Positions 8,807 to 28,575 of a stretch of 40,000 nucleotides of DNA are shown in pieces. How positions within the stretch are numbered: position 1 is the first letter of the stretch; every line of letters starts with the position of its first letter. Both the position numbers and the translations under genes were made by a program. This stretch comes from Nonomuraea sp. NPDC059194. GTDB lineage: Bacteria > Actinomycetota > Actinomycetes > Streptosporangiales > Streptosporangiaceae. The notes beneath the pieces were generated by a model. That model saw only the letters and a program-made list of their open reading frames with translations. It was not told where the DNA came from and did no database searches. The DNA lies in NCBI RefSeq assembly GCF_042754765.1, contig NZ_JBHZBH010000040.1, forward strand, positions 32,657 through 72,656, read 5' to 3'.

Positions 8807-9255
8807 GACCCGACGCGGGTCTCGTTGATCAGGGTCCGCTGGATGCACTTCCCGCCGCGGATCCACTGCCAGACCCGGCTGCGGGTGTTGCCGTCCGGGC
8901 TCAGCACGATCAGTTCGAACAGCCTGAGGTCGGCGCCGTCCTCCTTGTAGATCCACGACAGGTAGATCGTGTCGTCGTCGACGGCCCAGAACTCGCCTTT
9001 GATCCGCTCGGTGTCGAAGGCGCAGCGGCCCTGGCCCAGGTAGGTGCCGGGGAAGCGGTGTTCTTCGGTACGGCCGTCCTCCCAGGTGTAGCGGTTGATC
9101 TGGTAATAGTCCCAGTCTCCGCTGTCCGGCAGGGTGCAGGTGAGCCGGGCGTGGTGGCGGTCGACGACCGTGCCGTCGGGATCCACGTAGGTGTAGGTGC
9201 CTTCCCAGTCGCCTTCGTGCCGGGCGAGCAGCGGCATCTCTTCCCTGATTCCCAT
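8803..9255 (-). CDS. DUF3598-like small beta-barrel protein
   Basis: 150 aa (MPLLARHEGDWEGTYTYVDPDG..YQINRYTWEDG..). It resembles proteins I recall annotated as the DUF3598 family. A GAGGAA RBS is present, and there is a 4-nt ATGA overlap with the ligase start. Confidence 0.5.
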   Translation of the reverse strand: MGIREEMPLLARHEGDWEGTYTYVDPDGTVVDRHHARLTCTLPDSGDWDYYQINRYTWEDGRTEEHRFPGTYLGQGRCAFDTERIKGEFWAVDDDTIYLSWIYKEDGADLRLFELIVLSPDGNTRSRVWQWIRGGKCIQRTLINETRVGS

Positions 9256-9270
9256 GGCTTGATGTTCCTC

Positions 9271-9993
9271 TCAGGAGAGCCCGGCTCCCACCAGGCTTCC
9301 GATTCCGAAGGTGGCCGCGGCGGCGAGCCCGCCGAGCACCAGTTGGCGCAGAGCGCCGGCCCACCAGGGGCGCGCCGTGAGCCGGGCGACGACGCCTCCG
9401 GCGACCAGCAGCCCGAGGACGCTGACAATGGTCGCCACCAGGAGGCCCGAGGCGCCGAAGATGAACGGCAGCACCGGGATGATCGCGCCGGCGGCGAAGG
9501 CGGTGAAGGAGGAGATGGCGGCCACGTACGGAGAGGGGAGGTCGTCCGGGTCGACGCCGAGCTCTTCGCGGACGTGGACCCGCCACGCGAGTTCCGGCTG
9601 GGCGCTGATCTGCGCCGCGACCTTCTCCGCGGTCTCCGCGTCCAGGCCGCGGACCCGGTAGAGAGCGGTGAGCTCGGCCAGCTCGCCCTCGGGGTTGCGG
9701 GCCAGTTCGGCCTTCTCCACCTCGATCTCAGCCTGCATGAGCTCGGTCTGGGAGGCGACGGACGTGTACTCGCCGGCGGCCATGGAACAGGCGCCGGCGG
9801 CCAGCCCGGCCAGGCCGGTGATGACGACGACCGTGCTCGAAGCGCCGCCGCCTACGACGCCGCTGATGAGGGCGAAGTTGGAGACCAGGCCGTCCATCGC
9901 GCCGAAGACCGCGGGGCGGAGCCAGCCGCCGGTCACGTCTCGGTGGTGCCGGTGCTTCTCAACCGGCGGGGAGGGCAGGACATCTGCACTCAT
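9271..9993 (-). CDS. VIT1/CCC1-family iron/manganese transporter
   Basis: 240 aa. It has the FGAMDGLVSNFALISGV signature, a central amphipathic cytosolic helix region (ELMQAEIEVEKAELARNPEGELAEL) and C-terminal TM helices. Only 15 nt separate it from the next gene downstream. Confidence 0.85.
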   Translation of the reverse strand: MSADVLPSPPVEKHRHHRDVTGGWLRPAVFGAMDGLVSNFALISGVVGGGASSTVVVITGLAGLAAGACSMAAGEYTSVASQTELMQAEIEVEKAELARNPEGELAELTALYRVRGLDAETAEKVAAQISAQPELAWRVHVREELGVDPDDLPSPYVAAISSFTAFAAGAIIPVLPFIFGASGLLVATIVSVLGLLVAGGVVARLTARPWWAGALRQLVLGGLAAAATFGIGSLVGAGLS

Positions 9994-10030
9994 ATGGGTC
10001 CTTTAGCTGGGGGATCTCAGATCTTGTTTT

Positions 10031-10045
10031 GTGACAGTATGTCGT
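10031..10045. promoter_or_regulatory. Candidate operator, degenerate copy of the ACGACA-N3-TGTCGT palindrome
   Basis: The site reads GTGACAgtaTGTCGT followed by GAAAC. It lies in the 122-bp divergent region between the VIT1 start (9993) and the NCS-like start (10116). Confidence 0.55.
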
Positions 10046-10115
10046 GAAACAGTGTTCCGCAAGAGACTCGGGGGTTCGACCAGACCACTTCCGGATCTGC
10101 CCAGGGAGGCCATGG

Positions 10116-10733
10116 ATGCCCCGCAAACTGCTCAGCTGGACCGCCGCTCTCGTGTTCGGGCTGGCACTTTGGCCAAGCCCCGCTGCCGCGGGCGCCCAGC
10201 CCGAACTGACCGCCAGCCAGAGCGCCGACCTCTCCTCCGGTAGCGAGATCACCGTGACCGGGACCGGCTTCGCCCCCAAGACCGCGCTGTTCCTGGCGAT
10301 CTGCGACACCAGGCAGCCTCCGGGCAAGGCCTGTGACACCGGCAACTTCGCCAGGGTCACGACCGACGCGGACGGCAGGCTGGAGGCGAAGGTCAAGCCG
10401 GTCGCGACCTTCGGGGCCACCGACTGCACGGCCACCGCGTGCGCGCTGATGACCAACGACTCCGCCAACCCGCGCGACACCCGCAACTACGCCCAGCTGC
10501 CCATCACCTTCCAGGCGGCCCAGGCCACACCCTCCACGGCGCCGAGTTCCCCGGCGGCCACCCAGCAACCGGCCACCCAGCAACCGGCCGCCCAGCAACC
10601 GGCAGCCTCGCCTGCGGCTGCCGCCGAGGAGGAGAGCGGCTCCAACACCATGCTGGTCGTCGTTCTCGGGATCGCGGCCGTGCTGTTGATCACGGGGATG
10701 GTCGTTCTGGTACGGCGTCGCCGTACCGCCTGA
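10116..10733 (+). CDS. Secreted neocarzinostatin-fold protein with a Pro/Gln linker and a C-terminal TM anchor
   Basis: Start at ATG 10116, after GGGAGG at 10104-10109. The signal peptide is MPRKLLSWTAALVFGLALWPSPAAAGA. The core (ITVTGTGF..AICDT..TDCTATACALMTNDSANP) resembles enediyne apoprotein (neocarzinostatin) domains. It is followed by a (A/T)QQP repeat linker, a hydrophobic helix (MLVVVLGIAAVLLITGMVVLV) and RRRR. Confidence 0.7.
   Translation: MPRKLLSWTAALVFGLALWPSPAAAGAQPELTASQSADLSSGSEITVTGTGFAPKTALFLAICDTRQPPGKACDTGNFARVTTDADGRLEAKVKPVATFGATDCTATACALMTNDSANPRDTRNYAQLPITFQAAQATPSTAPSSPAATQQPATQQPAAQQPAASPAAAAEEESGSNTMLVVVLGIAAVLLITGMVVLVRRRRTA
10557..10601 (+). repeat. 3 x 15-bp in-frame tandem repeat (ATQQP/ATQQP/AAQQP)
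   Basis: gccacccagcaaccg is repeated three times with one substitution, inside the linker of the NCS-like protein. Confidence 0.9.
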
Positions 10734-10744
10734 TCGCCTCCGAC

Positions 10745-10775
10745 GAGGGCGGGCCGGGACGACCGGCCCGCCCTC
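10745..10775. terminator. Bidirectional hairpin between convergent genes
   Basis: A perfect 13-bp stem GAGGGCGGGCCGG / CCGGCCCGCCCTC with a 5-nt loop. It lies between the NCS-like stop (10733) and the ABC ATPase stop (10774). Confidence 0.6.
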
Positions 10776-11733
10776 ACGCATGGGAGATCTCCAGGTCGCG
10801 CAGGCAGGCGCTGCTTCTGCCCGCGTGACCGGTCGGCTCCACCAGGGCCGGCACCACGCTCCGGCAGGCGTCCGCCGCGTACGGGCAGCGCGGGTGGAAG
10901 GCGCAGCCCGCCGGGGGGCGCACGGCCGAGGGCACCTCGCCGGCCAGAGCGGGGAGCTGTCTGCGAGTGGGGTCGGGAACGGGCACCGCGGCCAGCAGCG
11001 TGCGCGTGTAGGGGTGGCGCGGAGAGCCGAAGACCTCCGCCGCAGGCCCGTGTTCGACGATCCTGCCCAGGTACATCACGGCGACATGGGTGGCCAGATG
11101 CCGCGCGATGTCCAGCTCGTGGGTGATCAGCAGATAGCCCAGGCCCAGGGACTCGCGCAGGTCGAGCAGCAGGTTCACGACGGTGGCCTTGACGCCGACG
11201 TCCAGGCTGGCCGTCGGCTCGTCGAGCACGATGGCGCGCGGCTGGGCGGCCAGCGCGCGCGCGACGGTGACGCGCTGGAGCTCGCCACCGCTGATCCCGC
11301 CGGGACGACGGTCCGCGTAGCCCGCGGGCAGCCCGACCTGCTCAAGCAACTCGGCGACGCGCCTGGCGCGCTCGGCGCCGTCCGTGCACAGCTTGTGGAC
11401 GAGAAGCGGAAGCCCGACCGAGTGGCCGATCGTCTTGCGCGGGTTCAGCGCCGCCCAGGGGTTCTGCGAGACGAACTGGACCGCCCGGCGTGCCGTACGG
11501 CTGAGCGCCGGTCCGGCGGGTTCGCCGGCGACGCGCACGCTCCCGGCCGTCGGCGCCAGCAGGCCCACGGCGAGCCGGGCGAGCGTCGACTTGCCACACC
11601 CGGACTCGCCCACCACCGCCAGGGTCTGGCCGGGACCCAGGCTGAGCGAGACGCCTTCCACCGCGTGCACGACCTGCCGCCGGGTGAGCGGATAGCGGTG
11701 GGTGACCTGGTCCAGCTCGACGAGCGGCGTCAT
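10774..11733 (-). CDS. Opp/Dpp-type ABC ATP-binding protein (OppF/DppF-like)
   Basis: Start at internal ATG 11733 (MTPLVELDQV..). Walker A (GESGCGKST), signature (ISGGELQRV) and Walker B (VLDEP) are present. The C-terminal oligopeptide-transporter extension contains Cys residues (GCAFHPRCPYA). Confidence 0.9.
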   Translation of the reverse strand: MTPLVELDQVTHRYPLTRRQVVHAVEGVSLSLGPGQTLAVVGESGCGKSTLARLAVGLLAPTAGSVRVAGEPAGPALSRTARRAVQFVSQNPWAALNPRKTIGHSVGLPLLVHKLCTDGAERARRVAELLEQVGLPAGYADRRPGGISGGELQRVTVARALAAQPRAIVLDEPTASLDVGVKATVVNLLLDLRESLGLGYLLITHELDIARHLATHVAVMYLGRIVEHGPAAEVFGSPRHPYTRTLLAAVPVPDPTRRQLPALAGEVPSAVRPPAGCAFHPRCPYAADACRSVVPALVEPTGHAGRSSACLRDLEISHA

Positions 11734-12632
11734 GGCGCACCCTCCGTGTGGTGGCAGCGGACATCGAGAACGGGCTGGGGATCGTGCTCGGCGCACACCT
11801 CCAGCACGACCGGGCAGCGCGGTGCGAACGGGCAGCCGTGCCGGGCGACCGGGCCGGGGACGAGCGTGCCCAGGCGCGACCCCGCGGCGGCGCGCCCCGG
11901 AAGGGCGGAAAGCAGAGCCCGGGTGTAGGGGTGGCGCGGTGCTGAGAAGATCTGCTCGGTGCTGCCCGTTTCCACCAGGCGTCCGCCGTACATGACCCCG
12001 ACCCGGTCGCAGATCTGCGCCACCACGGCCAGGTCGTGGGTGACGTAGAGGATGCCGAGCCCGAGCCGGTCGCGCAGGTCCAGCAGCAGGCGGAGCACCT
12101 GCGCCTGGACCGTGGGGTCGAGCGTGGTGGTGGGTTCGTCGGCGATGAGCAGGTCGGGCTGCCTGGCCAGCGCGGCGATCAGGATGAGCAGGCGTTGCAG
12201 CTGGCCACCGGAGAAGCGGTGCGGTGAGTCGCGAGGCCGGTCCAGGACCGCGCGCAGTCCCACCTGGCCGAGCAACTCGGTGAGGTCGGCATCGCCCGCG
12301 TGCCACCGCAGCTGCCGCAGGACGGGGGTGACCGGGCTGAGCGAGGTCATGGGGCGTTGCGGGATGACGCCGATGCGGGTGGCGCGCAGGCGGCGCATCT
12401 CCTCGTCGCGGAGCGCGGTCAGCTCCCGGTCGCCGAGCCGTACGGCCTGCGCCGTTGCCTTGGCCCCCGCGGGCAGGACGCGGGTGAGGGCCGCGCAGAC
12501 GCTGCTCTTGCCGCTGCCCGACTCGCCCACCAGGCCGAAGATCTCGCCGTGTTGAAGCGCGAAGGAGACGTCGTGGACGGCTCGCTTGCCGGGATAGTCC
12601 ACGTGCAGGCCGGTGACGGTGAGCAGGCTCAT
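11730..12632 (-). CDS. Opp/Dpp-type ABC ATP-binding protein (OppD/DppD-like)
   Basis: Start at internal ATG 12632 (MSLLTVTGLHV..). Walker A (GESGSGKSS), signature (FSGGQLQRL), Walker B (IADEP) and a C-terminal GCPFAPRCP motif are present. There are 4-nt overlaps on both sides. Confidence 0.9.
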   Translation of the reverse strand: MSLLTVTGLHVDYPGKRAVHDVSFALQHGEIFGLVGESGSGKSSVCAALTRVLPAGAKATAQAVRLGDRELTALRDEEMRRLRATRIGVIPQRPMTSLSPVTPVLRQLRWHAGDADLTELLGQVGLRAVLDRPRDSPHRFSGGQLQRLLILIAALARQPDLLIADEPTTTLDPTVQAQVLRLLLDLRDRLGLGILYVTHDLAVVAQICDRVGVMYGGRLVETGSTEQIFSAPRHPYTRALLSALPGRAAAGSRLGTLVPGPVARHGCPFAPRCPVVLEVCAEHDPQPVLDVRCHHTEGAP

Positions 12633-14158
12633 CCGGTGACTCCACGTGGCCGCAGGCGCGCGGTGCCCAGGCGGCTGATGCTCATGCGGGCCGGATCGAG
12701 AGGGCTGACGCTGGAGCGCTGGCCGACGATCATCTTGGGGTAGACCGGGGGGAACATCACGGCGTCCTCGGTGATCTGGGCGTTGACCTCTTGGAGGAGC
12801 CGGTCGCGTTCGGCCCGGTCGTCGGTGGCCCAGATGCGTTCGATGGCGGCGTCGACGTCCTTGTTGTGATATCCGCAGGCCAGCACGCTGGTCGACAGGG
12901 CGGGGGAGAGGGTGAGGTAGTTGGCGTCGCCGCTGGTGAAGCCGCTGGCGAAGCGATTCATGATCATCTGATATTTGCCGGCGATCCAGCGTTGCGCCCA
13001 CGGGCCGCCCTGCAGGACTTCCAGCTTGACGGTGATGCCGGCGCGCTGCCAGCCCTGCATGAGGACCTGGGCGATGTCCTCCATGGTCTGCCCGGCGCTG
13101 ATGGTGAGTGTGAAGGAGGGGTCCTTCACCTCCTTCAGCAGCTCGCGGACCTTCGCCAGGTCCGGGGTGGCGGGGAAGATCTGGAGGTCGGGGTCGTAGC
13201 CGCGTTCGGCGGGTCCGATCGGGCCCTGGCCGATGGTGGCGGCACCGCCGAAGACCTTGTCGTTGACCGCCTGCCGGTCGACGGCGTGGGCGACGGCGAG
13301 CCGGAAGTTCCGGTTGTCGAAGGGGGGATCGCCGGCCTTGACGTAGGTGAGCAGGTCGATGGGCGCGTCCACACGGTGGACGGTGACATTGGGCTGGCCG
13401 TCGAGCAGGGGCAGGGCGGCGACGGGCAGTTCGGTGGCTATGTCGACGCTTCCCGCCCGCAGGTTGACCGCCCGGGTCGAGCCGTCGGGGATGATCTGGA
13501 AGTCCAGCCGGGGGTAGGCCGGCTTGGGGCCGTGGTAGCCGGGGTGGGCGCTCATCGCGTAGCCGAGCCCGGCCGTCACCTTGTCCAGCCGGTAGGGACC
13601 GGTGCCCATCATCGCGTCCTTGCGCTCGGCGTAGGCCTTGTGCGTGATCGGCAGGTTGGTCAGGTGGGAGCGGAGCAGCCCGTAGGGACGGTTGAGTTTG
13701 ATCTCCACGGTGTGCGCGTCGATCGCGCGGGCGCCCGAGTAGTAGCCGAGGAAGTAGACGACCCACTCGCTGCCGCTGGCGAAGGCGGCGACGTGGGCGA
13801 GCGAGGCGACGACGTGCTCGGCGGTGAACGGGTCGCCGTTGTGGAAGGTCACTCCGGGTTTCAGCGGGATCGTCCAGGTCAGGCCGTCCGGTGAGATGAC
13901 GGGGTCCTTGGCCGCGAGGAGAGGGACCGGGCGCACGTTCGCGTCGTAGTCGTAGAGGGTCTCCATCACCGGCTCGGCGATCCAGCGCGTCACCTCGCTG
14001 CCGGAGTCGAGCGGGTTGAGGTTGCTCGGTCCTGCCGGGACGCCGATGCGCAGGGTGCCGCCCGCCGTACGGGAGGTCTGCGGGGAGCAGGCGGCGGCCA
14101 GCGGGATCGCGCCGAGCACGCCGAGCAGGCGTCGCCTGGACCAGGAGGGGTGGTTCAT
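12629..14158 (-). CDS. ABC substrate-binding protein, family 5 (peptide/nickel/heme-type), Tat-lipoprotein signal
   Basis: Start at internal ATG 14158. The N-terminus MNHPSWSRRRLLGVLGAIPLAAAC carries a twin-arginine motif plus a lipobox. The ~509-aa length and motifs (TLRIGV.., GTGPYRL) are typical of SBP family 5. Confidence 0.9.
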   Translation of the reverse strand: MNHPSWSRRRLLGVLGAIPLAAACSPQTSRTAGGTLRIGVPAGPSNLNPLDSGSEVTRWIAEPVMETLYDYDANVRPVPLLAAKDPVISPDGLTWTIPLKPGVTFHNGDPFTAEHVVASLAHVAAFASGSEWVVYFLGYYSGARAIDAHTVEIKLNRPYGLLRSHLTNLPITHKAYAERKDAMMGTGPYRLDKVTAGLGYAMSAHPGYHGPKPAYPRLDFQIIPDGSTRAVNLRAGSVDIATELPVAALPLLDGQPNVTVHRVDAPIDLLTYVKAGDPPFDNRNFRLAVAHAVDRQAVNDKVFGGAATIGQGPIGPAERGYDPDLQIFPATPDLAKVRELLKEVKDPSFTLTISAGQTMEDIAQVLMQGWQRAGITVKLEVLQGGPWAQRWIAGKYQMIMNRFASGFTSGDANYLTLSPALSTSVLACGYHNKDVDAAIERIWATDDRAERDRLLQEVNAQITEDAVMFPPVYPKMIVGQRSSVSPLDPARMSISRLGTARLRPRGVTG

Positions 14159-14997
14159 CGAATCTCCTTCAGCGCACGTCCGCCGAGCCGGTCGGAGAGG
14201 GTGTCGCCGATCAGGTTGAAGCCGAGGATCCCGGCGAGCATGACGGCGCCGGGCAGGACGGAGTACCACCAGACGCCCGCGGGCAGGTAGCCGGTGCCAC
14301 CGCCGGTGAGGTTGCCCAGCGTGGCCTGGGGGAGCTGGATGCCGAGCCCGAGGAAGCCGAGGCCGCCTTCGGCGAAGACGGCCAGCGCCATCGCCAGGAA
14401 GGCCTGGACGGCCATGGCCGGGGCGATGTTGGGGAGCAGCTCACCGAGGATGATCCGGGTACGGCGGACGCCGATGACCTGGAGGGCGGGCACGTAGTCC
14501 TGGCTCATCTCGACGAGGGTGGCCGCGCGGGCGACGCGGGCGAAATAGGGGATGAAGGCGATGCCGAGCAGGAGCACGACCTTGGTGGTCATGGTGATGG
14601 GGATCGGCCCCAGGTGCACGGTGGCCGTGCCGCTGAGACCGATGACGAACATGGCCAGCACGAACATGGGGAGCGCCTGGATGATCTCCAGGCTCCGCAT
14701 GATCAGGTCATCGAGCAGGGTGCCGCGCAGGTAACCGGCCAGAATGCCCAAGGGCAGGGCCAGAAGCAGGCCGAGGGCGACCGCGGCCAGGCTGACCAGG
14801 AGCGAGACCCGGGTGCCTGACGCCGTTCGGGCCAGGAGGTCCCGGCCGAGTTGGTCGGTGCCGAAGGGGTGGGCCAGGCTCGGGCCGGTCAGCACGTCGG
14901 GTCCGCCCGCGTTGGGGTCGCCGGTCAGCAGCGGGCCCAGGACGGCCAGCAGGCAGAACAGCGCCGCGCATCCGGCGCCGAACCAGGTCAGCTTCAT
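14155..14997 (-). CDS. Opp/Dpp-type ABC permease (DppC-like)
   Basis: Start at internal ATG 14997 (MKLTWFGAG..). The HPFGTDQLGRD motif and the EAA-loop region (..SQDYVPALQVIGVRRTRII..) are present. There are 4-nt overlaps with both neighbours. Confidence 0.9.
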   Translation of the reverse strand: MKLTWFGAGCAALFCLLAVLGPLLTGDPNAGGPDVLTGPSLAHPFGTDQLGRDLLARTASGTRVSLLVSLAAVALGLLLALPLGILAGYLRGTLLDDLIMRSLEIIQALPMFVLAMFVIGLSGTATVHLGPIPITMTTKVVLLLGIAFIPYFARVARAATLVEMSQDYVPALQVIGVRRTRIILGELLPNIAPAMAVQAFLAMALAVFAEGGLGFLGLGIQLPQATLGNLTGGGTGYLPAGVWWYSVLPGAVMLAGILGFNLIGDTLSDRLGGRALKEIR

Positions 14998-15959
14998 CGC
15001 AGCACCCCCTCGCGCACCCGGGGGTCGATCATGAGCTGGGCCAGGTCCACCAGCAGGTTCGTCACGAGGTACAGCAGGGCCACGGCCAGGCAGCAGCCGA
15101 CGGCGACGGGATAGTCCTGGCGGCGGAAGGAGTCGACCATGAGCTGGCCGATGCCCGGCACGCCGAACACGTTCTCGACCAGGATCGCGCCGCTGACCAG
15201 CATGCCGAGCATCAACCCCATGACGGTGACGACCGGGACGGCCGCGTTGCGCAGGGCGATCCTCCTGACGAGCGCACCCCGCGGCTGGCCGATGGCCCTG
15301 GCGAAGGTGACGTAGTCGCGCTCGAGCACCTCCAGCAGCGAGGCCCGCAGCGTCCGGGCGACCACCGCGAACGCGGGCAGGCCGAGAACGAACGCGGGCA
15401 GCGCCAGACTGGCGAGGTGCCCGCCCAGTCCCTCGCCGGGCGGGATGTAGCCGTCGGCGGGGAAGACTCCGACGACGTAGACGCCGAAGACCAGGACGCA
15501 GACCAGTCCGAGCCAGAAACTGGGCACGGACAGCGCGATCACGCTGACCACCCGGACGAACCCGTCGATGATCGAGCCATGCCGGAGCGCGGCGGCGGCG
15601 CCGGCCAGGACGCCCAGGAACATCCACACACCCGCCGCCACCAAGCCCAGTTCGAGGGATACGGGCAGCCGTTCCATGACGAGGGTGACCACCGGCTGGT
15701 CAGAGAAGATCGAGTTGCCCAGGTCGCCGGAGAACAACCGGCCGACGTAGCGGATGTACTGTTCCGGGATCGAGGCGTCCAGGCCGAGCCTGGCCGCGAC
15801 GGCGGCCCTTCCTTCCTCGCTGTAGCTGTAGCCCAGGAGGGTGTACAGCGGGCTGCCGGGTGACAGCCGCAGTAGGACGAAGACCAGCGAGACCACCACG
15901 AAGACCGTGGTCAGCAGGGCGGTCAGGCGCCGGAGGAGGTAGGAGGCCAAGCAGACCAT
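14994..15959 (-). CDS. Opp/Dpp-type ABC permease (DppB-like)
   Basis: 321 aa. The N-terminus (..YLLRRLTALL..) and the EAA-like region (..ERDYVTFARAIGQPRGALVRRIALRNA) are typical of DppB. The start may instead be the TTG three codons downstream, because GAGG lies only 1 nt before ATG 15959. Confidence 0.85.
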   Translation of the reverse strand: MVCLASYLLRRLTALLTTVFVVVSLVFVLLRLSPGSPLYTLLGYSYSEEGRAAVAARLGLDASIPEQYIRYVGRLFSGDLGNSIFSDQPVVTLVMERLPVSLELGLVAAGVWMFLGVLAGAAAALRHGSIIDGFVRVVSVIALSVPSFWLGLVCVLVFGVYVVGVFPADGYIPPGEGLGGHLASLALPAFVLGLPAFAVVARTLRASLLEVLERDYVTFARAIGQPRGALVRRIALRNAAVPVVTVMGLMLGMLVSGAILVENVFGVPGIGQLMVDSFRRQDYPVAVGCCLAVALLYLVTNLLVDLAQLMIDPRVREGVLR

Positions 15960-15961
15960 TC

Positions 15962-16020
15962 CTCACATTGTTCCTATATGCGGAAAGTCGTATATGTGAG
16001 TGGAAAGAATAGGCCACTCA
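15962..16020 (-). promoter_or_regulatory. AT-rich intercistronic element with two mutually exclusive hairpins
   Basis: The minus-strand RNA reads UGAGUGGccuauucuuuCCACUCACAUauacgacuuuccgcauauaggaacaAUGUGAGGaAUG. CCACUCA can pair with the upstream UGAGUGG, which includes the DUF1838 stop codon. The overlapping CUCACAU can instead pair with AUGUGAG, which abuts the permease start. Confidence 0.35.
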
Positions 16021-16776
16021 GGCCTGCCGGGCATCGTCCGAAGGATGTATTGCGCGCCAGCGGAAGGAGGTCCAGCTGGTCTCGTTGGGGGCCGACCAGG
16101 CTTCCGGCGCCTCCGCGAACCGCGGGCCGTGCGCGGCGATGAACTCCCTGGTCCGCTCAGGAACGGCCGCCCAGTCCGCGAGCTTGGCGCCCCGGCAGTG
16201 GTAGACCAGCGCGCCCGGCCGGTCGGCCATCCGCATCCAGGGCAGCCAGGGGGCGACCCGCGTCCATGACAGCGTGCACGGCACGTTTGCCATGTCGGGG
16301 TCGTCCACATCGGTGGCGCGGGCGAAGAACTGGAACAGCTCCATGGCTCGATAGGTGTCGTCCCCGGAGTTGTCCGGATAGTCGGCGACCGGCAGCGGCG
16401 AAGGGTAGGCGAGGAGCACGTCCGCGTTGACGACCACATCGGTTCCGATCCGGGTGGTCGACGGTTCGAGTCCGCGGGGCCAGTACTGGTTCACCGGGTC
16501 GTTCCAGACGTGAAGGACGTCCACCTTCTCGCCGGTGTAGCGGTTGTCCCAGCCGTCCAGGATCTCGCGCGTGACCGGGTCGAGGTAGAAGGCCGCTTCG
16601 CGGCTGAGGAGCCGATAGCCGCCGTCAGCGGGCACCGCCCGGGACACGTTGACCCCTTCGAACCCGAAGAGGTGGTGGGGGCCGTCCCCCGGCAGCCAGG
16701 CGTAGACGTCGCCCGTCCACCACACGGTGACTTGCGCCCCGCTCAGATCGGCTCGGATACGGACCAGGTCCATCAT
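16018..16776 (-). CDS. DUF1838-like protein
   Basis: Start chosen at ATG 16776 (MMDLVRIRADLSG..), preceded by AAAGGAGG. Motifs such as ..FGFEGVNVSR..GYRLLSREAAFYLDPVTREIL..W.N.YTGEKVDVLHVWNDPVNQ match my recollection of DUF1838 family proteins. It is the first gene of the ABC-transporter operon. Confidence 0.5.
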   Translation of the reverse strand: MMDLVRIRADLSGAQVTVWWTGDVYAWLPGDGPHHLFGFEGVNVSRAVPADGGYRLLSREAAFYLDPVTREILDGWDNRYTGEKVDVLHVWNDPVNQYWPRGLEPSTTRIGTDVVVNADVLLAYPSPLPVADYPDNSGDDTYRAMELFQFFARATDVDDPDMANVPCTLSWTRVAPWLPWMRMADRPGALVYHCRGAKLADWAAVPERTREFIAAHGPRFAEAPEAWSAPNETSWTSFRWRAIHPSDDARQA

Positions 16777-16789
16777 CAGCCTCCTTTTC

Positions 16790-16804
16790 ATGACAATGTG
16801 TCGC
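16790..16804. promoter_or_regulatory. Candidate operator, degenerate copy of the palindrome
   Basis: The site reads ATGACAatgTGTCGC. On the minus strand it is GCGACAcatTGTCAT followed by GAAAAGGAGG, immediately upstream of the DUF1838 RBS. Confidence 0.5.
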
Positions 16805-16833
16805 CAAACCATTGACGTGAGGGGCGGCACTTA

Positions 16834-16848
16834 ACGACACTCTGTCGT
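16834..16848. promoter_or_regulatory. Candidate operator, perfect palindrome ACGACA-ctc-TGTCGT
   Basis: The two 6-nt arms are perfectly complementary and are followed by GAAAC. The site lies 38 nt upstream of the heme oxygenase ATG (16886) and 16 nt downstream of a TTGACG hexamer (16812-16817). Its centre is 44 bp from the centre of site 16790-16804. Confidence 0.65.
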
Positions 16849-16885
16849 GAAACATGATTCCAACGCAATGCCCTGGAGGGCACAG

Positions 16886-17536
16886 ATGACCGAGACCTTC
16901 GCCGACGAGCTCAGGAAGACGACCTGGGGCGATCACGAGGCTGCCGAGCACACCGCCTACCTGGAGGCGTTGATGAACGGCAAGGTCTCCCGCGCCGGCT
17001 ACGCCGAGATGGTCGCCCAGCACTACTTCGCCTACGTCGCGCTGGAAGAGGCCGGCCGGGCGCTGGCCGACGACCCCGTCGCCGCCCCCTTCGTGCGGGC
17101 CGAACTGGAGCGGGTGCCCGCCCTGGAGCGCGACCTGGAGAGCCTGTACGGCCCTGCCTGGCGCGAGGAGATCAAGCCGTCCAAGTCCACGCTCACCTAC
17201 GTCGCGCGCATCAACCAGGTCGCCGACTGGCCCGGCGGCTTCATCGCCCACCACTACACCCGCTACCTCGGCGACCTGTCCGGCGGCCAAGTGATCAGGA
17301 AGGTCGCCGAGCGCACCTACCAGTTCGAGGACGAGGGCGGTATCAGCTTCTACCTGTTCCCCAACATCCCCGACCTCAAGGCGTTCAAGGTCGAGTACCG
17401 GGACCAGCTCAACGCCCTCGACCTGGACGACGTCGAGCGCAAGCGGATCATCCGCGAGGCACTGCTGGCCTACCAGCTCAACACCGAGGTGCTCGTCGAG
17501 ATCGGCAAGCGGCTGCCGGACTACCTGGTCGCATGA
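16886..17536 (+). CDS. Heme oxygenase (biliverdin-producing, HmuO/HO-1 family)
   Basis: Start taken at ATG 16886, 5 nt after GGAGGG; the track GTG at 16847 lies inside the operator. The proximal-His region (TTWGDHEAAEHTAY) is present. The canonical distal-helix motif HHYTRYLGDLSGGQVIRK is essentially identical to AHAYTRYLGDLSGGQVLKK of HO-1. Confidence 0.85.
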   Translation: MTETFADELRKTTWGDHEAAEHTAYLEALMNGKVSRAGYAEMVAQHYFAYVALEEAGRALADDPVAAPFVRAELERVPALERDLESLYGPAWREEIKPSKSTLTYVARINQVADWPGGFIAHHYTRYLGDLSGGQVIRKVAERTYQFEDEGGISFYLFPNIPDLKAFKVEYRDQLNALDLDDVERKRIIREALLAYQLNTEVLVEIGKRLPDYLVA

Positions 17537-18714
17537 GCTTCCCCGTTCCGGTGCGATCCCTGGGCCGGCCGCGTCTGCTGGCCGGACTGCCCGCCGGCGG
17601 GCCTGAGCCGACCGGCGAGCAGGTCGTGGAGATCGCGGCGGCGGCGGGCATCCGCGGCCGGGGCGGAGCGGGCTTCCCGCTCGCGGTGAAGCTCCGCTCC
17701 GTCGCGGCCGGATTCGTGATCGCCAACGGCGAGGAAGGCGAGCCCGCCTCGGTCAAGGACCGCTACCTGCTGCGTGAACAGCCGTCCCTGGTGCTGCGCG
17801 GGCTGGAACTGGCGGCGCGTGCCGTACGGGCCGAGCGATCTTTCCTGTATCTCAGCGACCCCGTCGCGGCTGCTCGGGTGCGGGCGGTCGCGCCCGCCGA
17901 GGTCGAGATCGTGCAGGTGTCACCCGCCTACGTGGCAGGAGAGGAAACGGCCGTCGTCCGCGCCGTCGGCGGCGGCCCGGCGCTTCCGACGGCCAAACCC
18001 CCCCGGCCCTGGCAGTCAGGGCTGCTCGGACGGCCGACCCTGGTCGGCAACGTCGAAACCCTGGCGCAGCTCGCGCTGGCCGTACACCTCGGACCTGAGG
18101 CGTATCGCGCGGTCGGTACTGATGACTCGCCGGGCACCCTTCTCGCCACGGTCTCCGGTGCGGGACAGGCTCCCGCTCTCTACGAGGTGCCGTACGGCAT
18201 GCCGTTCGGCACCCTTGTGGCGCAGCACGTGGGCTCGGCGGCCGAGGTGACCGGCGTCGTGGCGGGCGGGTTCGCCGGCGGTCTGCTACCCGCCCCCGCG
18301 CTCGTCCTGCCCCTGACGCACGCCGCCTTCGCGAGCGCGGGAAGCACGCTCGGCTGCGGCGCCTTCGTGCTGCTGGCCGGTGACTGCCCCGTGGGGGTGG
18401 CCGCCGAACTGGCGCGCTTCTTCGACGAGGAGAACGCCCGCCAGTGCGGGCCGTGCGTCAAGGGCAGCGCGGGGGTCGCCGAGGTGCTGGCCCGGCTCAC
18501 GGCCGGAGCAGCGACCGGCGAGGACGTCGAGCGGCTGGAGCGGTGGGGGGAGGGGCTGGCCGGGCGCGGCAACTGCGCCACGCCCGACGCGGTGTCAGTT
18601 CTGGTCGGTTCGCTCTTCCGGCACCACCGCGAGCGGGTGCGGGCGCATGTGGACTCCAGGTGCGCCACCTGCGCCCCGCACGATTTCCGTATTCGACTTG
18701 AGGAGAATGCATGA
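17533..18714 (+). CDS. NuoF-like (respiratory complex I 51-kDa subunit family) flavoprotein, stand-alone
   Basis: 393 aa with an ATGA overlap to the heme oxygenase stop. It has GIRGRGGAGFP (FMN site), ANGEEGEPASVKDRYLL (NADH site) and YVAGEETAVV..KPPRP..GRPTLVGNVETL. The C-terminal Fe-S region is FFDEENARQCGPCVKG...GRGNCATPD. Confidence 0.75.
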   Translation: MSFPVPVRSLGRPRLLAGLPAGGPEPTGEQVVEIAAAAGIRGRGGAGFPLAVKLRSVAAGFVIANGEEGEPASVKDRYLLREQPSLVLRGLELAARAVRAERSFLYLSDPVAAARVRAVAPAEVEIVQVSPAYVAGEETAVVRAVGGGPALPTAKPPRPWQSGLLGRPTLVGNVETLAQLALAVHLGPEAYRAVGTDDSPGTLLATVSGAGQAPALYEVPYGMPFGTLVAQHVGSAAEVTGVVAGGFAGGLLPAPALVLPLTHAAFASAGSTLGCGAFVLLAGDCPVGVAAELARFFDEENARQCGPCVKGSAGVAEVLARLTAGAATGEDVERLERWGEGLAGRGNCATPDAVSVLVGSLFRHHRERVRAHVDSRCATCAPHDFRIRLEENA

Positions 18715-18899
18715 AGGTCGCCATTGACGCTTCTGTCTGCGACGGCAAGGGCTACTGCAAGCGCTTCGCCCCAGAGGTGTTCGGCCTGGATGAGTGGGGC
18801 TACGGCAAGGTGCTCGTCGAGGAGGTGCCGCCGGAGCAGGAGGCCAACGCCCTGGCTGCGGTGGAAGCCTGCCCGCTCCAGGCCATCAACACGATGTGA
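18711..18899 (+). CDS. Small single-cluster ferredoxin (3Fe-4S/4Fe-4S type)
   Basis: 62 aa with an ATGA overlap to the upstream stop. The cysteine pattern CDGKGYC ... CP matches actinomycete single-cluster ferredoxins. Confidence 0.8.
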   Translation: MKVAIDASVCDGKGYCKRFAPEVFGLDEWGYGKVLVEEVPPEQEANALAAVEACPLQAINTM

Positions 18900-18903
18900 A
18901 CGA

Positions 18904-18930
18904 GGGCTGCCTCCGGGTGGGAGGCAGCCC
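18904..18930. terminator. Bidirectional hairpin between convergent genes
   Basis: A perfect 11-bp stem GGGCTGCCTCC / GGAGGCAGCCC with the loop GGGTG, followed by GTTTG. It lies between the ferredoxin stop (18899) and the second heme oxygenase stop (18940). Confidence 0.65.
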
Positions 18931-18939
18931 GTTTGCCGC

Positions 18940-19602
18940 TCAGCCGAGGTCGAAGGTCTCGCCCAGCTCGACGGTGATGGCGGCGTTGCCGTTGAAGGCC
19001 TGGTTGCCCTCGTCCACCAGTGCCGGGACGTCCTCGTCGGTGACCGGGATCGCATTCATCCGGGCGTGGTATTCGCCGACGAACGCGTGAGTGTCCTCGA
19101 TCTCGGCGAAGTCGTAGAAGGCGGTGCCTTCGCCTCCGGTCAGGCCGTAGGTGGTCGCGAGCATCTTGCCGAGCGTGGCCCCGCCGTGCAGGTAACCCGC
19201 GTAGCGGATCCAGTGATGGGGCACCAACCCGAGCGGCCACTCGTCCCTGACCCGCTCCAGCCGGGCGACGTAGGCGTCGGTGGCCGGTGAGGTCTCCAGG
19301 GCCTGTCGCCAGTCCCGGCCGTAGAAGTGCGCCAGGTCCTTCTCGATCGCCTCGGTGCGGTGGAGTTGCGGCAGGTGCAGCACGCCGACCGCCGGGTCGT
19401 CGCGCAGCGCCTCCGTGGTGCGCTCCAGGGCGGCATAGACGGCGTGGAAGCGCACCAACCAGAGGCGGTAGGCCTCCTCGGTGAGTTTGCCCTGGAACAG
19501 GGCGAGCATGTAGGGCGTGTTCTCGGCCGCACGATGGGCCTCCGTCGTCCCCTTGTAGAGCAGCCGGGACAGAGGATCGCGGTCCTGCGAGATGGGTTCC
19601 AT
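18940..19602 (-). CDS. Divergent heme-oxygenase paralog
   Basis: Start at internal ATG 19602 (MEPISQDRDPLSRLLYKGTTEAHRAAENTPYM..), after GAGGAG plus 4 nt. The proximal-His motif is canonical. The distal-helix motif reads HHWIRYAGYLHGGATLGK instead of ..YLGDLSGGQ... Confidence 0.75.
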   Translation of the reverse strand: MEPISQDRDPLSRLLYKGTTEAHRAAENTPYMLALFQGKLTEEAYRLWLVRFHAVYAALERTTEALRDDPAVGVLHLPQLHRTEAIEKDLAHFYGRDWRQALETSPATDAYVARLERVRDEWPLGLVPHHWIRYAGYLHGGATLGKMLATTYGLTGGEGTAFYDFAEIEDTHAFVGEYHARMNAIPVTDEDVPALVDEGNQAFNGNAAITVELGETFDLG

Positions 19603-19640
19603 GGGTCTCCTCATCTTTATGACGACATGCCACAAAGATA

Positions 19641-19655
19641 ACGACAACTTGTCGT
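19641..19655. promoter_or_regulatory. Candidate operator, perfect palindrome ACGACA-act-TGTCGT
   Basis: The arms are perfectly complementary and are followed by AAAAAC. The site lies in the 80-bp divergent region between the second heme oxygenase start (19602) and the TetR start (19683). An isolated ACGACA half-site lies at 19622-19627. Confidence 0.65.
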
Positions 19656-19682
19656 AAAAACAATGGAACGGCGTTCCTGGTC

Positions 19683-20324
19683 GTGGCTGTGATGGTCTCG
19701 GCTGCTGTCGCGTGCGAAGATGCCGATGTGCCCCGAATCTCCGCCGCGAACCTGAGCGAGCATCGCGCGCAGACCCTGGAACGCATCTTCGCAGCGGTCT
19801 CCCGGCTGTCGCGCAGCCAGGCCACCGACGACATCTCCATGACCGACGTCGCCGCAGCGGCCGGAGTGGCACGCACCGTGCTCTACAACTACTTCCCCGA
19901 CAAGGCCTCGCTGCTGCTGGCCTTCAGCGAGCGGGTCACCGAGTACTTCGTCGAGCGGTTCGAGCGCGACCTGCCGACGTCAGCCGGCGCATCCGAACGG
20001 GTTGCCGTGTTCATCCGGCTCACCCTCGACGGGCTGCTGGCTCATCCCCACCCCGACGCGGCCGAGATGTCCGTGGCTCTGGGCGCCGAGGCCTATCACG
20101 CGCTGGCGGGACATGTCGCGCCGATGCAGCGGATCCTCGCCGAGATCATCGCGGAGGGCGTGCGAACGGGGGAGTTTCGCCCGCTCGAACCTGACACTGC
20201 GGCACGCAGCGTCATGGGGGTCATCGGTGCCGAGCGCATACCGCTCGTTCAAGGGCGGATTGGCCTGGACGAGGCGCGGCGCGCCGTGACGTCCTTCGTG
20301 CAAAACGCTCTCCGGAAGGAATAG
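19683..20324 (+). CDS. TetR-family transcriptional regulator
   Basis: The N-terminal HTH (ISMTDVAAAAGVARTVLYNYFPDKASLL) is typical of TetR. The start is uncertain: GTG 19683, ATG 19692 and GTG 19728 are all possible. Confidence 0.85.
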   Translation: MAVMVSAAVACEDADVPRISAANLSEHRAQTLERIFAAVSRLSRSQATDDISMTDVAAAAGVARTVLYNYFPDKASLLLAFSERVTEYFVERFERDLPTSAGASERVAVFIRLTLDGLLAHPHPDAAEMSVALGAEAYHALAGHVAPMQRILAEIIAEGVRTGEFRPLEPDTAARSVMGVIGAERIPLVQGRIGLDEARRAVTSFVQNALRKE

Positions 20325-20527: not shown

Positions 20528-21982
20528 GTGCAACCAGCAGACGAGATCCTCGTGGGCGGGAAGTGGCGGGGCGGCTCAGGCCCCGTCATCGAGACGGCCG
20601 ACCCCGCCACCGGCCAGGTGATCGCCCGGATCCACGGAGCGGGCGTCGACGACGTGGCGGACGCCGTGCGGGCCGGGCAGCGGGCCGTCGCCGACCCGGC
20701 CTGGCGCGACCTGCTCCCGCATGAGCGGGCGCGGTACCTGGCGCGGATCGCCGACCTGGTCGACGGGCACGCCGAGGACCTGGCCCGGCTGCAGACGGCC
20801 GACACCGGTAAGTCGATCAACGAGACCAGGGCTCTGGTCGCCAGCGCGGCGGGCACCTTCCGCTACTTCGCGGCGGCGCTGGAGACGCTGGAAGGCGCGC
20901 TGACCCCGTCCCGCGGGCCGTACCTCACGATGAGCGTGCACGAGCCGATCGGCGTGGTCGGCGCGATCACCCCGTGGAACTCGCCCATCGCCAGCGACGC
21001 CCAGAAGATCGCCCCGGCGCTGGCCGCGGGGAACGCGGTGGTGCTCAAGCCCGCTGAATGGACGCCGCTCGTGTCGCTCGCGCTGGGCCGTCTGGTCACC
21101 GACTCAGGTCTGCCGCCGGGGCTGCTGTCGGTGCTGCCGGGAGAGGGGCGGGTGGTCGGCGATGCGATCGTCCGCCATCCCGGCGTGGGCAAGGTCTCCT
21201 TCACCGGCGGCACCGCCACCGGCAGGGCCATCGGCGCGGTCGCCGCGGAGAAGATCATGCCGGTCTCGCTGGAGCTGGGCGGCAAGTCGCCCACCATCGT
21301 CTTCCCGGACGCCGACCTGGACCAGGTCGTGGCCGGGGTGCTGTTCGGGATCTTCTCCTCGTCCGGGCAGAGCTGCATCGCCGGATCGCGCCTCTTCGTC
21401 CACGCCGACGTCTACGACGAGGTTCTCGCCCGGCTGGTCGAGCGGGCCGGCAAGCTGCGGGTCGGGCCGGGCGTCGACCCGGCGACCCAGGTGGCCCCGC
21501 TCGTGACGCACGCGCACCGGGACCGGGTGGCGGCCATGGTCGACCGGGCACGGGACGAGGGGGCCAGGGTGCTGTGCGGTGGCCGGGCACCGGACGGCCC
21601 CGGAGCCTATTACCCGCCGACGATCCTGGACGGCCTGGACAACGATTCGGCCACCTGCCAGGAGGAGATCTTCGGCCCGGTGCTCGTCGCGCTGCCGTTC
21701 GCCGACGAGGACGACCTGGTCGCCCGCGCCAACGCGTCGGTGTACGGCCTGGCCTGCGGCATCTGGACCCGCGACTACCGTACGGCCTGGCGGGTCGCCA
21801 GGCGGGTGGAGGCGGGCACGGTCTGGATCAACACCTACAAGCAGTTCAGCGTCTCCACGCCGTTCGGCGGGATGAAGGAGAGCGGGCTCGGCCGGGAGAA
21901 GGGGCGCGAGGGCATCCTCGCATACACCCGGCAGAAGAGCGTCTACCTGGGGCTCAGCGAAGACCCGTTGCCCTGGGCTTGA
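20528..21982 (+). CDS. NAD(P)-dependent aldehyde dehydrogenase
   Basis: 484 aa with a GTG start after GAGGGAGGAAG. The catalytic motifs ELGGKSP and SSGQSCIAGSR (nucleophilic Cys) and FTGGTATG are present. Confidence 0.9.
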   Translation: MQPADEILVGGKWRGGSGPVIETADPATGQVIARIHGAGVDDVADAVRAGQRAVADPAWRDLLPHERARYLARIADLVDGHAEDLARLQTADTGKSINETRALVASAAGTFRYFAAALETLEGALTPSRGPYLTMSVHEPIGVVGAITPWNSPIASDAQKIAPALAAGNAVVLKPAEWTPLVSLALGRLVTDSGLPPGLLSVLPGEGRVVGDAIVRHPGVGKVSFTGGTATGRAIGAVAAEKIMPVSLELGGKSPTIVFPDADLDQVVAGVLFGIFSSSGQSCIAGSRLFVHADVYDEVLARLVERAGKLRVGPGVDPATQVAPLVTHAHRDRVAAMVDRARDEGARVLCGGRAPDGPGAYYPPTILDGLDNDSATCQEEIFGPVLVALPFADEDDLVARANASVYGLACGIWTRDYRTAWRVARRVEAGTVWINTYKQFSVSTPFGGMKESGLGREKGREGILAYTRQKSVYLGLSEDPLPWA

Positions 21983-22494
21983 GCGGCGCGCCCGGCCGCC
22001 TCCAGGGAGCTCTCCAGCCGGGACAGCAGGCGGGCGAGCTGGCGCTGCTCCACGTCGGTCAGCTTGGCCAGCATCCGCTGCTCGTTGGCGAAGTGCGTCT
22101 GCGCCACCCGCTCGACCAGGTCGAGCCCGGCGTCGGTCAGCTGCGCGTAGACGACGCGCCGGTCGTCGGGGTCGCGCTCCCTGACGACCAGCCCCGCCTT
22201 CTCCAGCCGATCGACGCGCAGTGTCACCCCGCCCGTGCTGACCAGCGAGGTCTCGGCGAGCTGGCCCGCGGTCATCCGGTATGGCGAGCCGGAGCGGCGT
22301 AGGGCGGTCAGTACGTCGAAGGCCGCCATGCTGATGCCGTACGTCTCGAAGACCTCGTTCAGCAGCACCTGGTACCGCAGGAAGCTGCGGTGCAGGCGGC
22401 CGAACACGGCCAGGGGCGCGATGTCCACCTCGGGAAGCTCGCGCCTCCACTGCTCCATGATCTGGTCCACCGCGTCGGATGATCTGCGCGTCAT
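21943..22494 (-). CDS. MarR-family transcriptional regulator
   Basis: 183 aa. The winged-HTH region (FDVLTALRRSGSPYRMTAGQLAETSLVSTGGVTLRVDRLEKAGLVVRERDPDDRRVV) is a canonical MarR pattern. Its 3' end overlaps the aldehyde dehydrogenase 3' end by 40 bp. Confidence 0.9.
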   Translation of the reverse strand: MTRRSSDAVDQIMEQWRRELPEVDIAPLAVFGRLHRSFLRYQVLLNEVFETYGISMAAFDVLTALRRSGSPYRMTAGQLAETSLVSTGGVTLRVDRLEKAGLVVRERDPDDRRVVYAQLTDAGLDLVERVAQTHFANEQRMLAKLTDVEQRQLARLLSRLESSLEAAGRAAQAQGNGSSLSPR

Positions 22495-22597
22495 GAGAAA
22501 AGCCTAAAGGGGACTTGTGCGTGAGGAATCTGACTGCTAGAAAGCTTGTACATCAATATTTTGGTCCTAAGATAATTTCCCCAGATAGGAGGGGCCA
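22495..22597. promoter_or_regulatory. AT-rich divergent MarR/cupin promoter region
   Basis: This is the only intergenic space between the divergent MarR gene and the first catabolic gene. It is locally AT-rich (..aagcttgtacatcaatattttggtcctaagataatttcc..). A GATAAT hexamer sits at 22571-22576, 22 nt before the ATG. I found no convincing -35 element or operator. Confidence 0.4.
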
Positions 22598-23095: not shown

Positions 23096-23096
23096 C

Positions 23097-24020: not shown

Positions 24021-24030
24021 GGGAGAAGCC

Positions 24031-26182: not shown

Positions 26183-26196
26183 CGCCCGTGGGGGAG

Positions 26197-26964: not shown

Positions 26965-27034
26965 TCACCACCTGCGCGCCGGCCGATCCCGGACGGGGCA
27001 GCGGACGGCGCATCGGCGGGGAGGAGACGGCCTG

Positions 27035-28566: not shown

Positions 28567-28575
28567 GGGGCTGTC

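Follow-up and report, generated by a model that had tools for sequence, protein, structure and literature searches.

Introduction

The heme-sensing TetR regulators HrtR of Lactococcus lactis, FhtR of Enterococcus faecalis and HatR of Clostridioides difficile all control heme efflux (PMC7858072, PMC12839281, PMC12670364). HrtR, encoded by the hrtRBA locus (PDB entry 3VOK), is a repressor that occupies a 15-nucleotide (nt) palindromic site within its own promoter, from which heme releases it (PMC12839281, PMC12670364). Its residues R46 and Y50 read G11 and T12 of the operator (PMC5389471, PMC12839281), which has been described as a palindrome split by one base (7+1+7) (PMC5389471). In Corynebacterium, the heme oxygenase gene hmuO is controlled by DtxR and by the two-component systems HrrSA and ChrSA (PMC7337898), and our literature searches retrieved no TetR regulator controlling heme oxygenase or heme uptake in actinomycetes. 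Here, we analyzed a 40,000-nt stretch of Nonomuraea sp. NPDC059194 (contig NZ_JBHZBH010000040.1, positions 32,657 to 72,656 of the forward strand), referred to below as the window, which carries five copies of a 21-bp palindrome in the divergent intergenic regions of a gene cluster with two heme oxygenase (HO) genes, HO1 and HO2, and a TetR gene. We propose that these palindromes are probably operators at which a dimeric repressor of the TetR family binds, most likely the product of the gene at 19728-20324.

The candidate repressor resembles HrtR in the residues that would contact DNA. In a direct alignment with the N-terminal sequence of 3VOK, R49 and Y53 of the window protein align with R46 and Y50 of HrtR, while G11 is kept in all 38 sites compared here and T12 in 33 of the 38, these being the conserved G and T of TGTC. 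The HrtR operator, which we take to be ATGACAcagTGTCAT, would fit the pattern RYGACA-N3-TGTCRY and agrees with the 7+1+7 description and with the positions of G11 and T12. Beyond this the two systems differ. Identity amounts to 21% over 73 residues and is confined to the DNA-binding domain, neither of the HrtR heme ligands, H72 and H149, is matched by an aligned residue and the C-terminal domains do not align. HrtR acts on the HrtBA heme efflux pump, in contrast to the heme oxygenases and importer found here, and a Pfam search of the window revealed no hrtBA-type genes. Finally, the sites described here are paired, with a spacing of 22 bp or about 44 bp. Searches for homologues recovered 3VOK neither among the top 57-60 PDB sequence hits nor among the top 50 Foldseek hits. 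The window TetR thus stands outside the HrtR family, yet its DNA recognition, judged from the alignment, appears to work like that of HrtR.

Other described regulators share single features with the locus. FhtR, which controls hrtBA, is a heme-released TetR repressor that acts at a pair of palindromes located in the -10/-35 region of a single promoter (PMC7858072), a layout that matches the paired sites at the HO1 promoter. Its operators, TTATCAATCGATAA and TTATCGATTGATAA, are unrelated in sequence to the sites here; moreover, fhtR is expressed constitutively as a monocistronic gene, FhtR acts on efflux and heme is sensed via a tyrosine, Y132. HatR-HatT, compared by gene order alone, consists of a TetR gene followed by an MFS transporter gene (PMC12839281), as do three of the loci described below (L005, L006 and L010). 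The widespread form of the window's TetR family is likewise HO-TetR-MFS or TetR-MFS. In contrast, hatRT does not include a heme oxygenase, and the window TetR has no MFS partner, being followed instead by an aldehyde dehydrogenase gene. Among actinobacteria, the Corynebacterium hmuO system is the only well-studied example of how an HO-1-type heme oxygenase and genes for heme uptake are controlled, and it relies on a DtxR-family protein and response regulators rather than on a one-component TetR candidate. The closest solved relatives of the window TetR are Bacillus subtilis FadR/YsiA and Thermus FadR; however, identity to them is only about 21%, the FadR regulons consist of fatty-acid degradation genes and the B. 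subtilis FadR box is presumably unlike GACA-N3-TGTC.

Results

A 21-bp palindrome occurs five times in three divergent intergenic regions

The initial annotation had reported a 15-bp palindrome in two perfect and two degenerate copies. An exact pattern search of the window confirmed the perfect copies of ACGACANNNTGTCGT at 16834-16848 and 19641-19655, whereas 100 dinucleotide-preserving shuffles yielded no match, and it also found the degenerate copies at 10031-10045 and 16790-16804, both with an intact GACA-N3-TGTC core. This core, GACANNNTGTC, is present five times in the window against an expectation of 0.36, at positions 10033, 16792, 16836, 19643 and 33725. The last of these, TCGACAtgcTGTCGG (33723-33737), is the sole GACA-N3-TGTC outside the heme cluster. 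It is located inside a GYD-domain gene (33595-33930, minus strand), scores -2.2 bits against the full 21-bp matrix described below and looks like a chance match. When up to three mismatches were allowed, the 15-mer was not enriched (16 found versus 13.9 expected), and the signal therefore consists of four good copies and not of a diffuse excess.

Comparison of 26 compiled sites showed that the conserved unit is longer than the 15 bp first proposed, namely, a 21-bp palindrome of the form TTnRYGACA-N3-TGTCGYnAA. The flanking positions are T(-2) in 26/26 sites, T(-3) in 20/26, A(+2) in 26/26 and A(+3) in 25/26. The A-rich flank noted earlier had been quoted correctly; it is the right outer arm of the 21-bp palindrome, whose mirror image on the left had been overlooked. 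A weight matrix trained solely on loci from other genomes picked out five sites in the window, at 20 to 34 bits, and the best score after these was 2.5 bits, leaving a gap of approximately 18 bits. In shuffled sequences, the matrix maxima averaged 6.9 bits and reached 14.6 bits at most. The fifth copy, at 19616-19636, had escaped the initial annotation, in which a part of it (19622-19627) was taken for an isolated half-site. The five operators, as we call them for convenience, and the putative -35 hexamer of the HO1 promoter are as follows.

10028-10048: Operator A, TTTGTGACAgtaTGTCGTGAA, between the VIT1 operon (minus strand) and the neocarzinostatin-fold gene (plus strand); 31.8 bits; conserved in loci L001 to L003
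16787-16807: Operator B, TTCATGACAatgTGTCGCCAA, 11-31 nt upstream of the DUF1838 start codon and upstream of the HO1 -35; 31.1 bits
16812-16817, plus strand: TTGACG, putative -35 hexamer of the heme oxygenase 1 promoter
16831-16851: Operator C, TTAACGACActcTGTCGTGAA, includes GACACT (16836-16841), the putative HO1 -10; 34.2 bits
19616-19636: Operator E, TTTATGACGacaTGCCACAAA, degenerate, 14-34 nt upstream of the HO2 start codon; 20.2 bits
19638-19658: Operator D, ATAACGACAactTGTCGTAAA, in the HO2/TetR divergent region; 31.0 bits

All five sites fall within three divergent intergenic regions. A third-position GC frame plot and Pfam bore out the gene map from which these regions had been derived, with the correction that the third region extends to 19727. 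The two sites of the middle region are indeed 44 bp apart, center to center. With an exact palindrome in 0/100 shuffles and five sites standing far above the next best score, the recurrence is not accidental, and chance is excluded as the source of the copies.

Known regulatory boxes were also compared with the three regions, using consensus sequences for IdeR/DmdR, Fur, Zur and Rex. The best IdeR/DmdR match had 7 mismatches in 19 positions and lay outside the three regions, no Fur or Rex box matched within them and the sole near match to a Zur box was a coincidental overlap with a ribosome-binding site.

The sites are conserved beside heme oxygenase genes in eight genera

A search with the TetR identified orthologous loci in N. 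spiralis, N. sediminis and Nonomuraea sp. NPDC048916 (86, 76 and 73% identity, respectively). All copies of the palindrome are conserved at orthologous positions in these three Nonomuraea genomes, as the initial annotation had suggested should be examined. In the alignments, the GACA and TGTC blocks are invariant, while the 3-base center and the outer two bases vary. Since the intergenic regions are 73-81% identical overall, a footprint within Nonomuraea is of limited power and the distant loci matter more. These were collected by a search for TetR homologues followed by a look-up of gene context, and they included the following.

L006, Acrocarpospora phusangensis: HO-TetR-MFS
L007, Microtetraspora glauca: HO-NuoF-ferredoxin / HO2 / TetR
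L008, Actinomadura sp. 9N407: full cluster, including the importer and the neocarzinostatin-fold gene
L009, Streptosporangium becharense: HO and TetR

In these four loci, each exact core match falls in a heme oxygenase or TetR intergenic region. The matrix was then fixed, and three out-of-sample loci were fetched afterward (L010 to L012: N. phyllanthi, Thermocatellispora tengchongensis and Bailinhaonella thermotolerans). In all three, a heme oxygenase gene is followed by a TetR gene, and a single strong pair of sites immediately precedes the heme oxygenase gene. Otherwise, the matrix reached 10 bits in these loci just at overlapping registers of the upstream pair member. A search based on heme oxygenase added two further loci, from Nocardiopsis mwathae and Dactylosporangium roseum. 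The former carries an HO-TetR tandem, whose TetR is 54% identical to that of the window and keeps the HPHP and HVAPMQ motifs, along with two sites 43 bp apart placed around a TTGACA. Altogether, site pairs were found beside a heme oxygenase gene and a member of the TetR family in Microtetraspora, Actinomadura, Acrocarpospora, Streptosporangium, Thermocatellispora, Bailinhaonella and Nocardiopsis. Among 13 loci with the TetR family (eight genera, three gene arrangements), 12 have paired sites and an adjacent heme oxygenase.

The spacing of the sites is conserved as well. An equivalent of Operator B is present in 11 other loci, and Operators B and C are spaced 42-44 bp apart in 10/10 loci. In the six genomes with the divergent HO2/TetR layout, Operator D and both of its flanks are conserved, Operator E is always present and the D-E spacing is invariably 22 bp.

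A scan of 225 kb from 10 genomes, which bears on whether the motif is equally dense in coding sequence, revealed no site of at least 10 bits inside any gene. The sole hit outside the heme-cluster promoter regions was in L003 (Nonomuraea sp. NPDC048916), where an extra site, TTTACGACActcCGTCATCAT (6234-6254, 27 bits), lies just past the DUF1838 stop codon, between it and the permease genes. The window has no equivalent of this site, the best score at that place being -4 bits. The loci collected afterward contributed no more than two hits in overlapping registers and one 17-bit site in a convergent gap. A deltaproteobacterial locus whose TetR is 27% identical (L004) has no site.

The Dactylosporangium roseum locus (L014) comprises sortase and neocarzinostatin-fold genes, a heme oxygenase, a ferredoxin, VIT1 and a Dpp-type importer. 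It carries weaker sites of 21.0 and 12.6 bits, located 22 bp apart in the divergent region of the heme oxygenase gene. A TetR gene 1.7 kb from these sites is preceded by a perfect 22-bp palindrome, TTAGCGACACTGGTGTCGCTAA, with GCGACA half-sites and a 4-bp center; it lies at 3536-3660, between this gene and an MMPL transporter gene. The DNA-binding domain of this TetR is 38% identical to that of the window TetR, which provides weak independent support for the idea that such a domain may read GACA. A separate 17-bit site, TTGCTGACAattTGTCAGAGA (4257-4277), lies where the TetR and sortase genes converge, in the gap that separates their 3' ends. An operator would be unusual at such a place, and the site might indicate an unannotated small gene.

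The sites overlap or adjoin putative core promoters

The hexamer GACACT, which consists of the left half-site and the first spacer bases, is invariant in 11/11 type C sites, and a TTGACG, TTGACC or TTGCGA is located 16-18 nt before it in 11/11 loci. The spacer of type C sites always starts with CT because GACACT doubles as the putative -10 element of the HO1 promoter. Operator B sits 7-8 nt upstream of the putative HO1 -35. For the remaining promoters, we assigned hexamers manually. The HO2 promoter may consist of TTGTTT (19663-19658) and TATCTT (19640-19635) on the minus strand, the VIT1 operon promoter of TTGCGG (10062-10057) and TACTGT (10039-10034) and the surface-protein promoter of TTGTTT (10025-10030) and AACAGT (10048-10053), in each case with 17 nt between the hexamers. 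These hand-assigned hexamers draw on flank conservation and, like the TTGACG of the HO1 promoter, lie below the threshold of a strict sigma-70 scan.

Taken with these assignments, each site would overlap or adjoin core promoter elements, a layout that is classical for steric repression. Operator C would hold the -10-like GACACT of HO1 and Operator B would be bound just upstream of its -35, Operator D would occupy the spacer of the HO2 promoter and Operator E would span the HO2 start region, while Operator A would occlude two back-to-back promoters, those of the VIT1 operon and of the surface protein. From this placement, a bound repressor would silence five transcription units comprising approximately 17 genes.

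A second perfect palindrome, GGAACggcGTTCC, was observed at 19665-19677, in the stretch that separates Operator D from the TetR start. It is kept in the four Nonomuraea genomes and absent from Microtetraspora and Actinomadura, and it may bind another factor or belong to the TetR promoter.

The TetR protein is the candidate binder

The initial annotation had placed the TetR start at 19683, which proved to be over-extended by 15 codons. The N-terminus of the family, MPRISAA, is found in 98% of 120 homologues and begins here at GTG 19728; the start was therefore set to this codon and the third intergenic region to 19603-19727.

19728-20324, plus strand: TetR-family regulator, 198 amino acids (aa), GTG start, Pfam TetR_N and TetR_C_27; candidate binder

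The AlphaFold model of the protein has an all-helical TetR fold (pLDDT 87.7). Its nearest solved proteins are FadR regulators, YvdT and EthR, and the closest of these both by sequence (E = 2e-8 to 5e-11) and by fold (Foldseek, TM 0.75-0.80) are the acyl-CoA-sensing FadR proteins. Residues R49, Y53, H108, H129 and M133 are invariant in 30 homologues, and H106 is nearly so. The four histidine and methionine residues belong to the family motifs AHPHP and HVAPMQ, located in the ligand domain.

This protein is the candidate binder because no other regulator accompanies the sites across the three arrangements and eight genera, because the divergent region that would hold its own promoter contains two of the sites, because the size and symmetry of the palindrome are typical of TetR operators and because R49 and Y53 in its recognition helix are invariant. 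Judged from conservation and position, the palindromes are almost certainly protein-binding operators, and these would probably be bound by members of this TetR family.

The large-cluster genomes also keep a paralogue of approximately 60% identity in the context TetR-MFS-P450-FG-GAP. Since the recognition helix of the paralogue is identical, cross-regulation is possible.

The putative target genes would serve heme import and breakdown

The window has a G+C content of 70%, and its genes were called from third-position GC, Pfam and NCBIfam. Around the sites they are arranged as follows.

6106-9993, minus strand: operon with the VIT1 iron transporter gene first (Pfam, NCBIfam, frame plot)
6106-7332, minus strand: DUF4437/cupin protein (Pfam)
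7316 to about 8800, minus strand: acyl-CoA-synthetase-like enzyme (Pfam, NCBIfam)
8803-9255, minus strand: DUF3598_N protein (Pfam)
9271-9993, minus strand: VIT1 iron transporter (Pfam)
10116-10733, plus strand: secreted neocarzinostatin-fold protein (Pfam Neocarzinostat, E = 3.8e-14)
10774-16776, minus strand: operon of DUF1838, two Dpp/Opp-type permeases, a family-5 solute-binding protein and two ATPases (Pfam; internal boundaries approximate)
12629 to about 14155, minus strand: family-5 solute-binding protein, closest to NikA/GsiB/Opp5A, below their cut-offs
16018-16776, minus strand: DUF1838 (Pfam)
16886-18899, plus strand: operon of HO1, a NuoF-like flavoprotein and a small ferredoxin
16886-17536, plus strand: heme oxygenase 1 (Pfam Heme_oxygenase, E = 2.1e-61; 100% identical to the Nonomuraea sp. 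NPDC059194 protein)
17533-18714, plus strand: NuoF-like flavoprotein (Pfam Complex1_51K, NADH_4Fe-4S)
18711-18899, plus strand: small ferredoxin, 62 aa (open reading frame)
18940-19602, minus strand: heme oxygenase 2 (Pfam Heme_oxygenase, E = 1.2e-53)

The trio of heme oxygenase, NuoF-like protein and ferredoxin recurs in L007 and L008, where the ferredoxin has a Fer4_15 match. The translation of the neocarzinostatin-fold gene begins with a signal peptide and contains a Pro/Ala/Gln-rich low-complexity linker and a C-terminal membrane anchor. Such a gene accompanies the heme oxygenase cluster in three genera (L008, 1-498 and 10679-11308; L014, 5143-5868), and in Dactylosporangium it adjoins the sortase gene. 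This suggests that the protein is a cell-surface heme receptor, a role for which the fold is not known. Mentions of DUF1838 in the literature were limited to two incidental entries in gene tables.

In the mechanism that we propose, heme would be imported by the Dpp-type ABC transporter with DUF1838 and the surface protein and would be broken down by the two heme oxygenases with electrons supplied via the NuoF-like protein and ferredoxin, and VIT1 would handle the iron released from heme. The Dpp/NikA-type importer family includes known heme carriers. Binding of heme or a heme-derived inducer to the C-terminal domain would free the repressor from its operators, in keeping with the usual logic of TetR regulation, in which the substrate of the enzyme releases the repressor. 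Candidate ligand residues are the invariant H108, H129 and M133 and the nearly invariant H106.

Two further features of the window were noted. An AT-rich 58-bp gap (15960-16017) within the DUF1838-importer operon contains a block, TATATGCGGAAAGTCGTATA, that is conserved in L001 and L003, as well as an inverted repeat, CTCACAT...ATGTGAG, and may act as an internal promoter or as an RNA element. Farther downstream (21943-31000), a MarR regulator gene (21943-22503, minus strand) is divergent from an aromatic-catabolism-like cluster and shows no relation to the palindrome; the cluster encodes a cupin, a ferredoxin reductase, a Rieske/VanA-type oxygenase, an extradiol-dioxygenase-like protein, a hydrolase, two short-chain dehydrogenases and a thiamine diphosphate-dependent enzyme.

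Discussion

Several observations weigh against the proposal that the window TetR represses a heme regulon from these sites. A strict sigma-70 scan detected no promoter in any of the three regions, and the overlap of the sites with promoters therefore rests on weak, manually assigned hexamers; likewise, the promoter of the TetR gene was not located in the third region. One family locus, a paralogue in N. spiralis (L005, TetR-MFS by a urease cluster), has neither a heme oxygenase nor an upstream site, so that the motif tracks the heme oxygenase promoter and not the TetR gene itself. In N. spiralis, the urease cluster takes the place of the heme oxygenase and both sites that precede the paralogue in N. 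phyllanthi (L010). In L014, no TetR_C_27 regulator is encoded within 6 kb of the sites. As for the inducer, HrtR was not among the solved relatives that we found; the nearest ones are the acyl-CoA-sensing FadR proteins, which leaves a heme effector without support from homology. Furthermore, the closest families of the importer binding protein are nickel and peptide binders, all of them below cut-off. Since the gene content speaks for heme and homology is silent, we give a heme or heme-derived effector roughly an even chance.

The alternative that survives best, although we consider it rather unlikely, accepts the sites as TetR operators and replaces heme by another inducer, such as biliverdin or a further breakdown product, ferrous iron, an acyl-CoA or thioester, or a metal-chelate brought in by the importer. 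The relationship to acyl-CoA-binding FadR in both structure and sequence, the acyl-CoA-synthetase-like gene within the VIT1 operon and the resemblance of the importer binding protein to NikA/GsiB would agree with this, and the conserved His/His/His/Met set could equally hold a metal ion. However, most loci contain no acyl-CoA synthetase gene and no ABC importer, whereas the one constant partner of the TetR and its sites across 12 loci is an HO-1-type heme oxygenase, often in a compact HO-TetR unit. TetR ligand domains are, in addition, too divergent for homology to name the ligand.

It is less probable still, and in our view doubtful, that a different transcription factor, for instance, a global heme or iron regulator, binds the sites while the adjacent TetR controls something else. 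The site-less TetR of L005 and the L014 sites that lack a close family member nearby are what such a regulator would leave behind, and both the sites and the TetR are invariant, so there is no covariation to exploit. On the other hand, the TetR gene adjoins heme oxygenase in 12/13 family loci with three arrangements, in 6 genomes the divergent promoter region of the TetR gene itself contains sites and a palindrome of 15-21 bp with a 3-bp center is typical of TetR operators. Moreover, no IdeR, Fur, Zur or Rex box fits, and the TetR 1.7 kb from the L014 sites has a related DNA-binding domain and a GCGACA palindrome of its own.

That the palindromes act as RNA hairpins (attenuators, terminators or structures of a 5' untranslated region) is highly improbable. 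A terminator-like scan flagged the Operator D palindrome with a T-rich tail on the minus strand, and the HO2 leader folds better than its shuffles (z = -3.6), but the other two regions fold like shuffles (z = -0.9 and -0.2) and no Rfam match was found. Variation in the arms is mostly noncompensatory, the most common state at the variable positions being a noncomplementary T/G combination (17/38), with A/C mismatches as well; the sites lie upstream of or inside putative core promoters and serve both strands; and a stem of six base pairs closed by a 3-nt loop is weak. The probability that the copies recur by chance or form a dispersed repeat without regulatory role is negligible, for the core match at 33725, in coding sequence where 0.36 matches were expected, stands against 0/100 shuffles, the gap of about 18 bits and the position and spacing conserved in eight genera.

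We therefore return to the TetR repressor. The mechanism itself is ordinary, a TetR protein with palindromic operators, and the value of the finding is in the regulon and its possible effector. The regulon is coherent, conserved and experimentally tractable; it has not previously been described and is possibly heme-responsive. More tentatively, and at rather less than even odds, the locus may represent a new heme-sensing TetR family of the Streptosporangiales (Streptosporangiaceae, Thermomonosporaceae and Nocardiopsaceae) that induces heme acquisition and catabolism. Such a family would combine an HrtR-type operator with an unrelated ligand domain bearing a His-Pro-His / His...Met heme site, a neocarzinostatin-fold heme receptor and iron disposal by VIT1.

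To our knowledge, heme acquisition in filamentous soil actinomycetes is essentially unstudied, and the sole actinobacterial paradigm that we found is the control by DtxR and two-component systems in Corynebacterium. If the proposal is correct, it would provide an operator/repressor pair and a full local regulon for heme use in these organisms. Through their co-regulation with heme oxygenases, uncharacterized genes would become candidates for heme handling, namely, those for DUF1838, the neocarzinostatin-fold protein, the NuoF-like/ferredoxin pair, DUF3598, DUF4437 and VIT1. The compact HO-TetR cassette with its two defined 21-bp operators could then serve as a heme-responsive switch in high-GC hosts. 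Unlike HrtR, FhtR and HatR, which govern efflux only, the regulator described here would switch on the acquisition and catabolism of heme.

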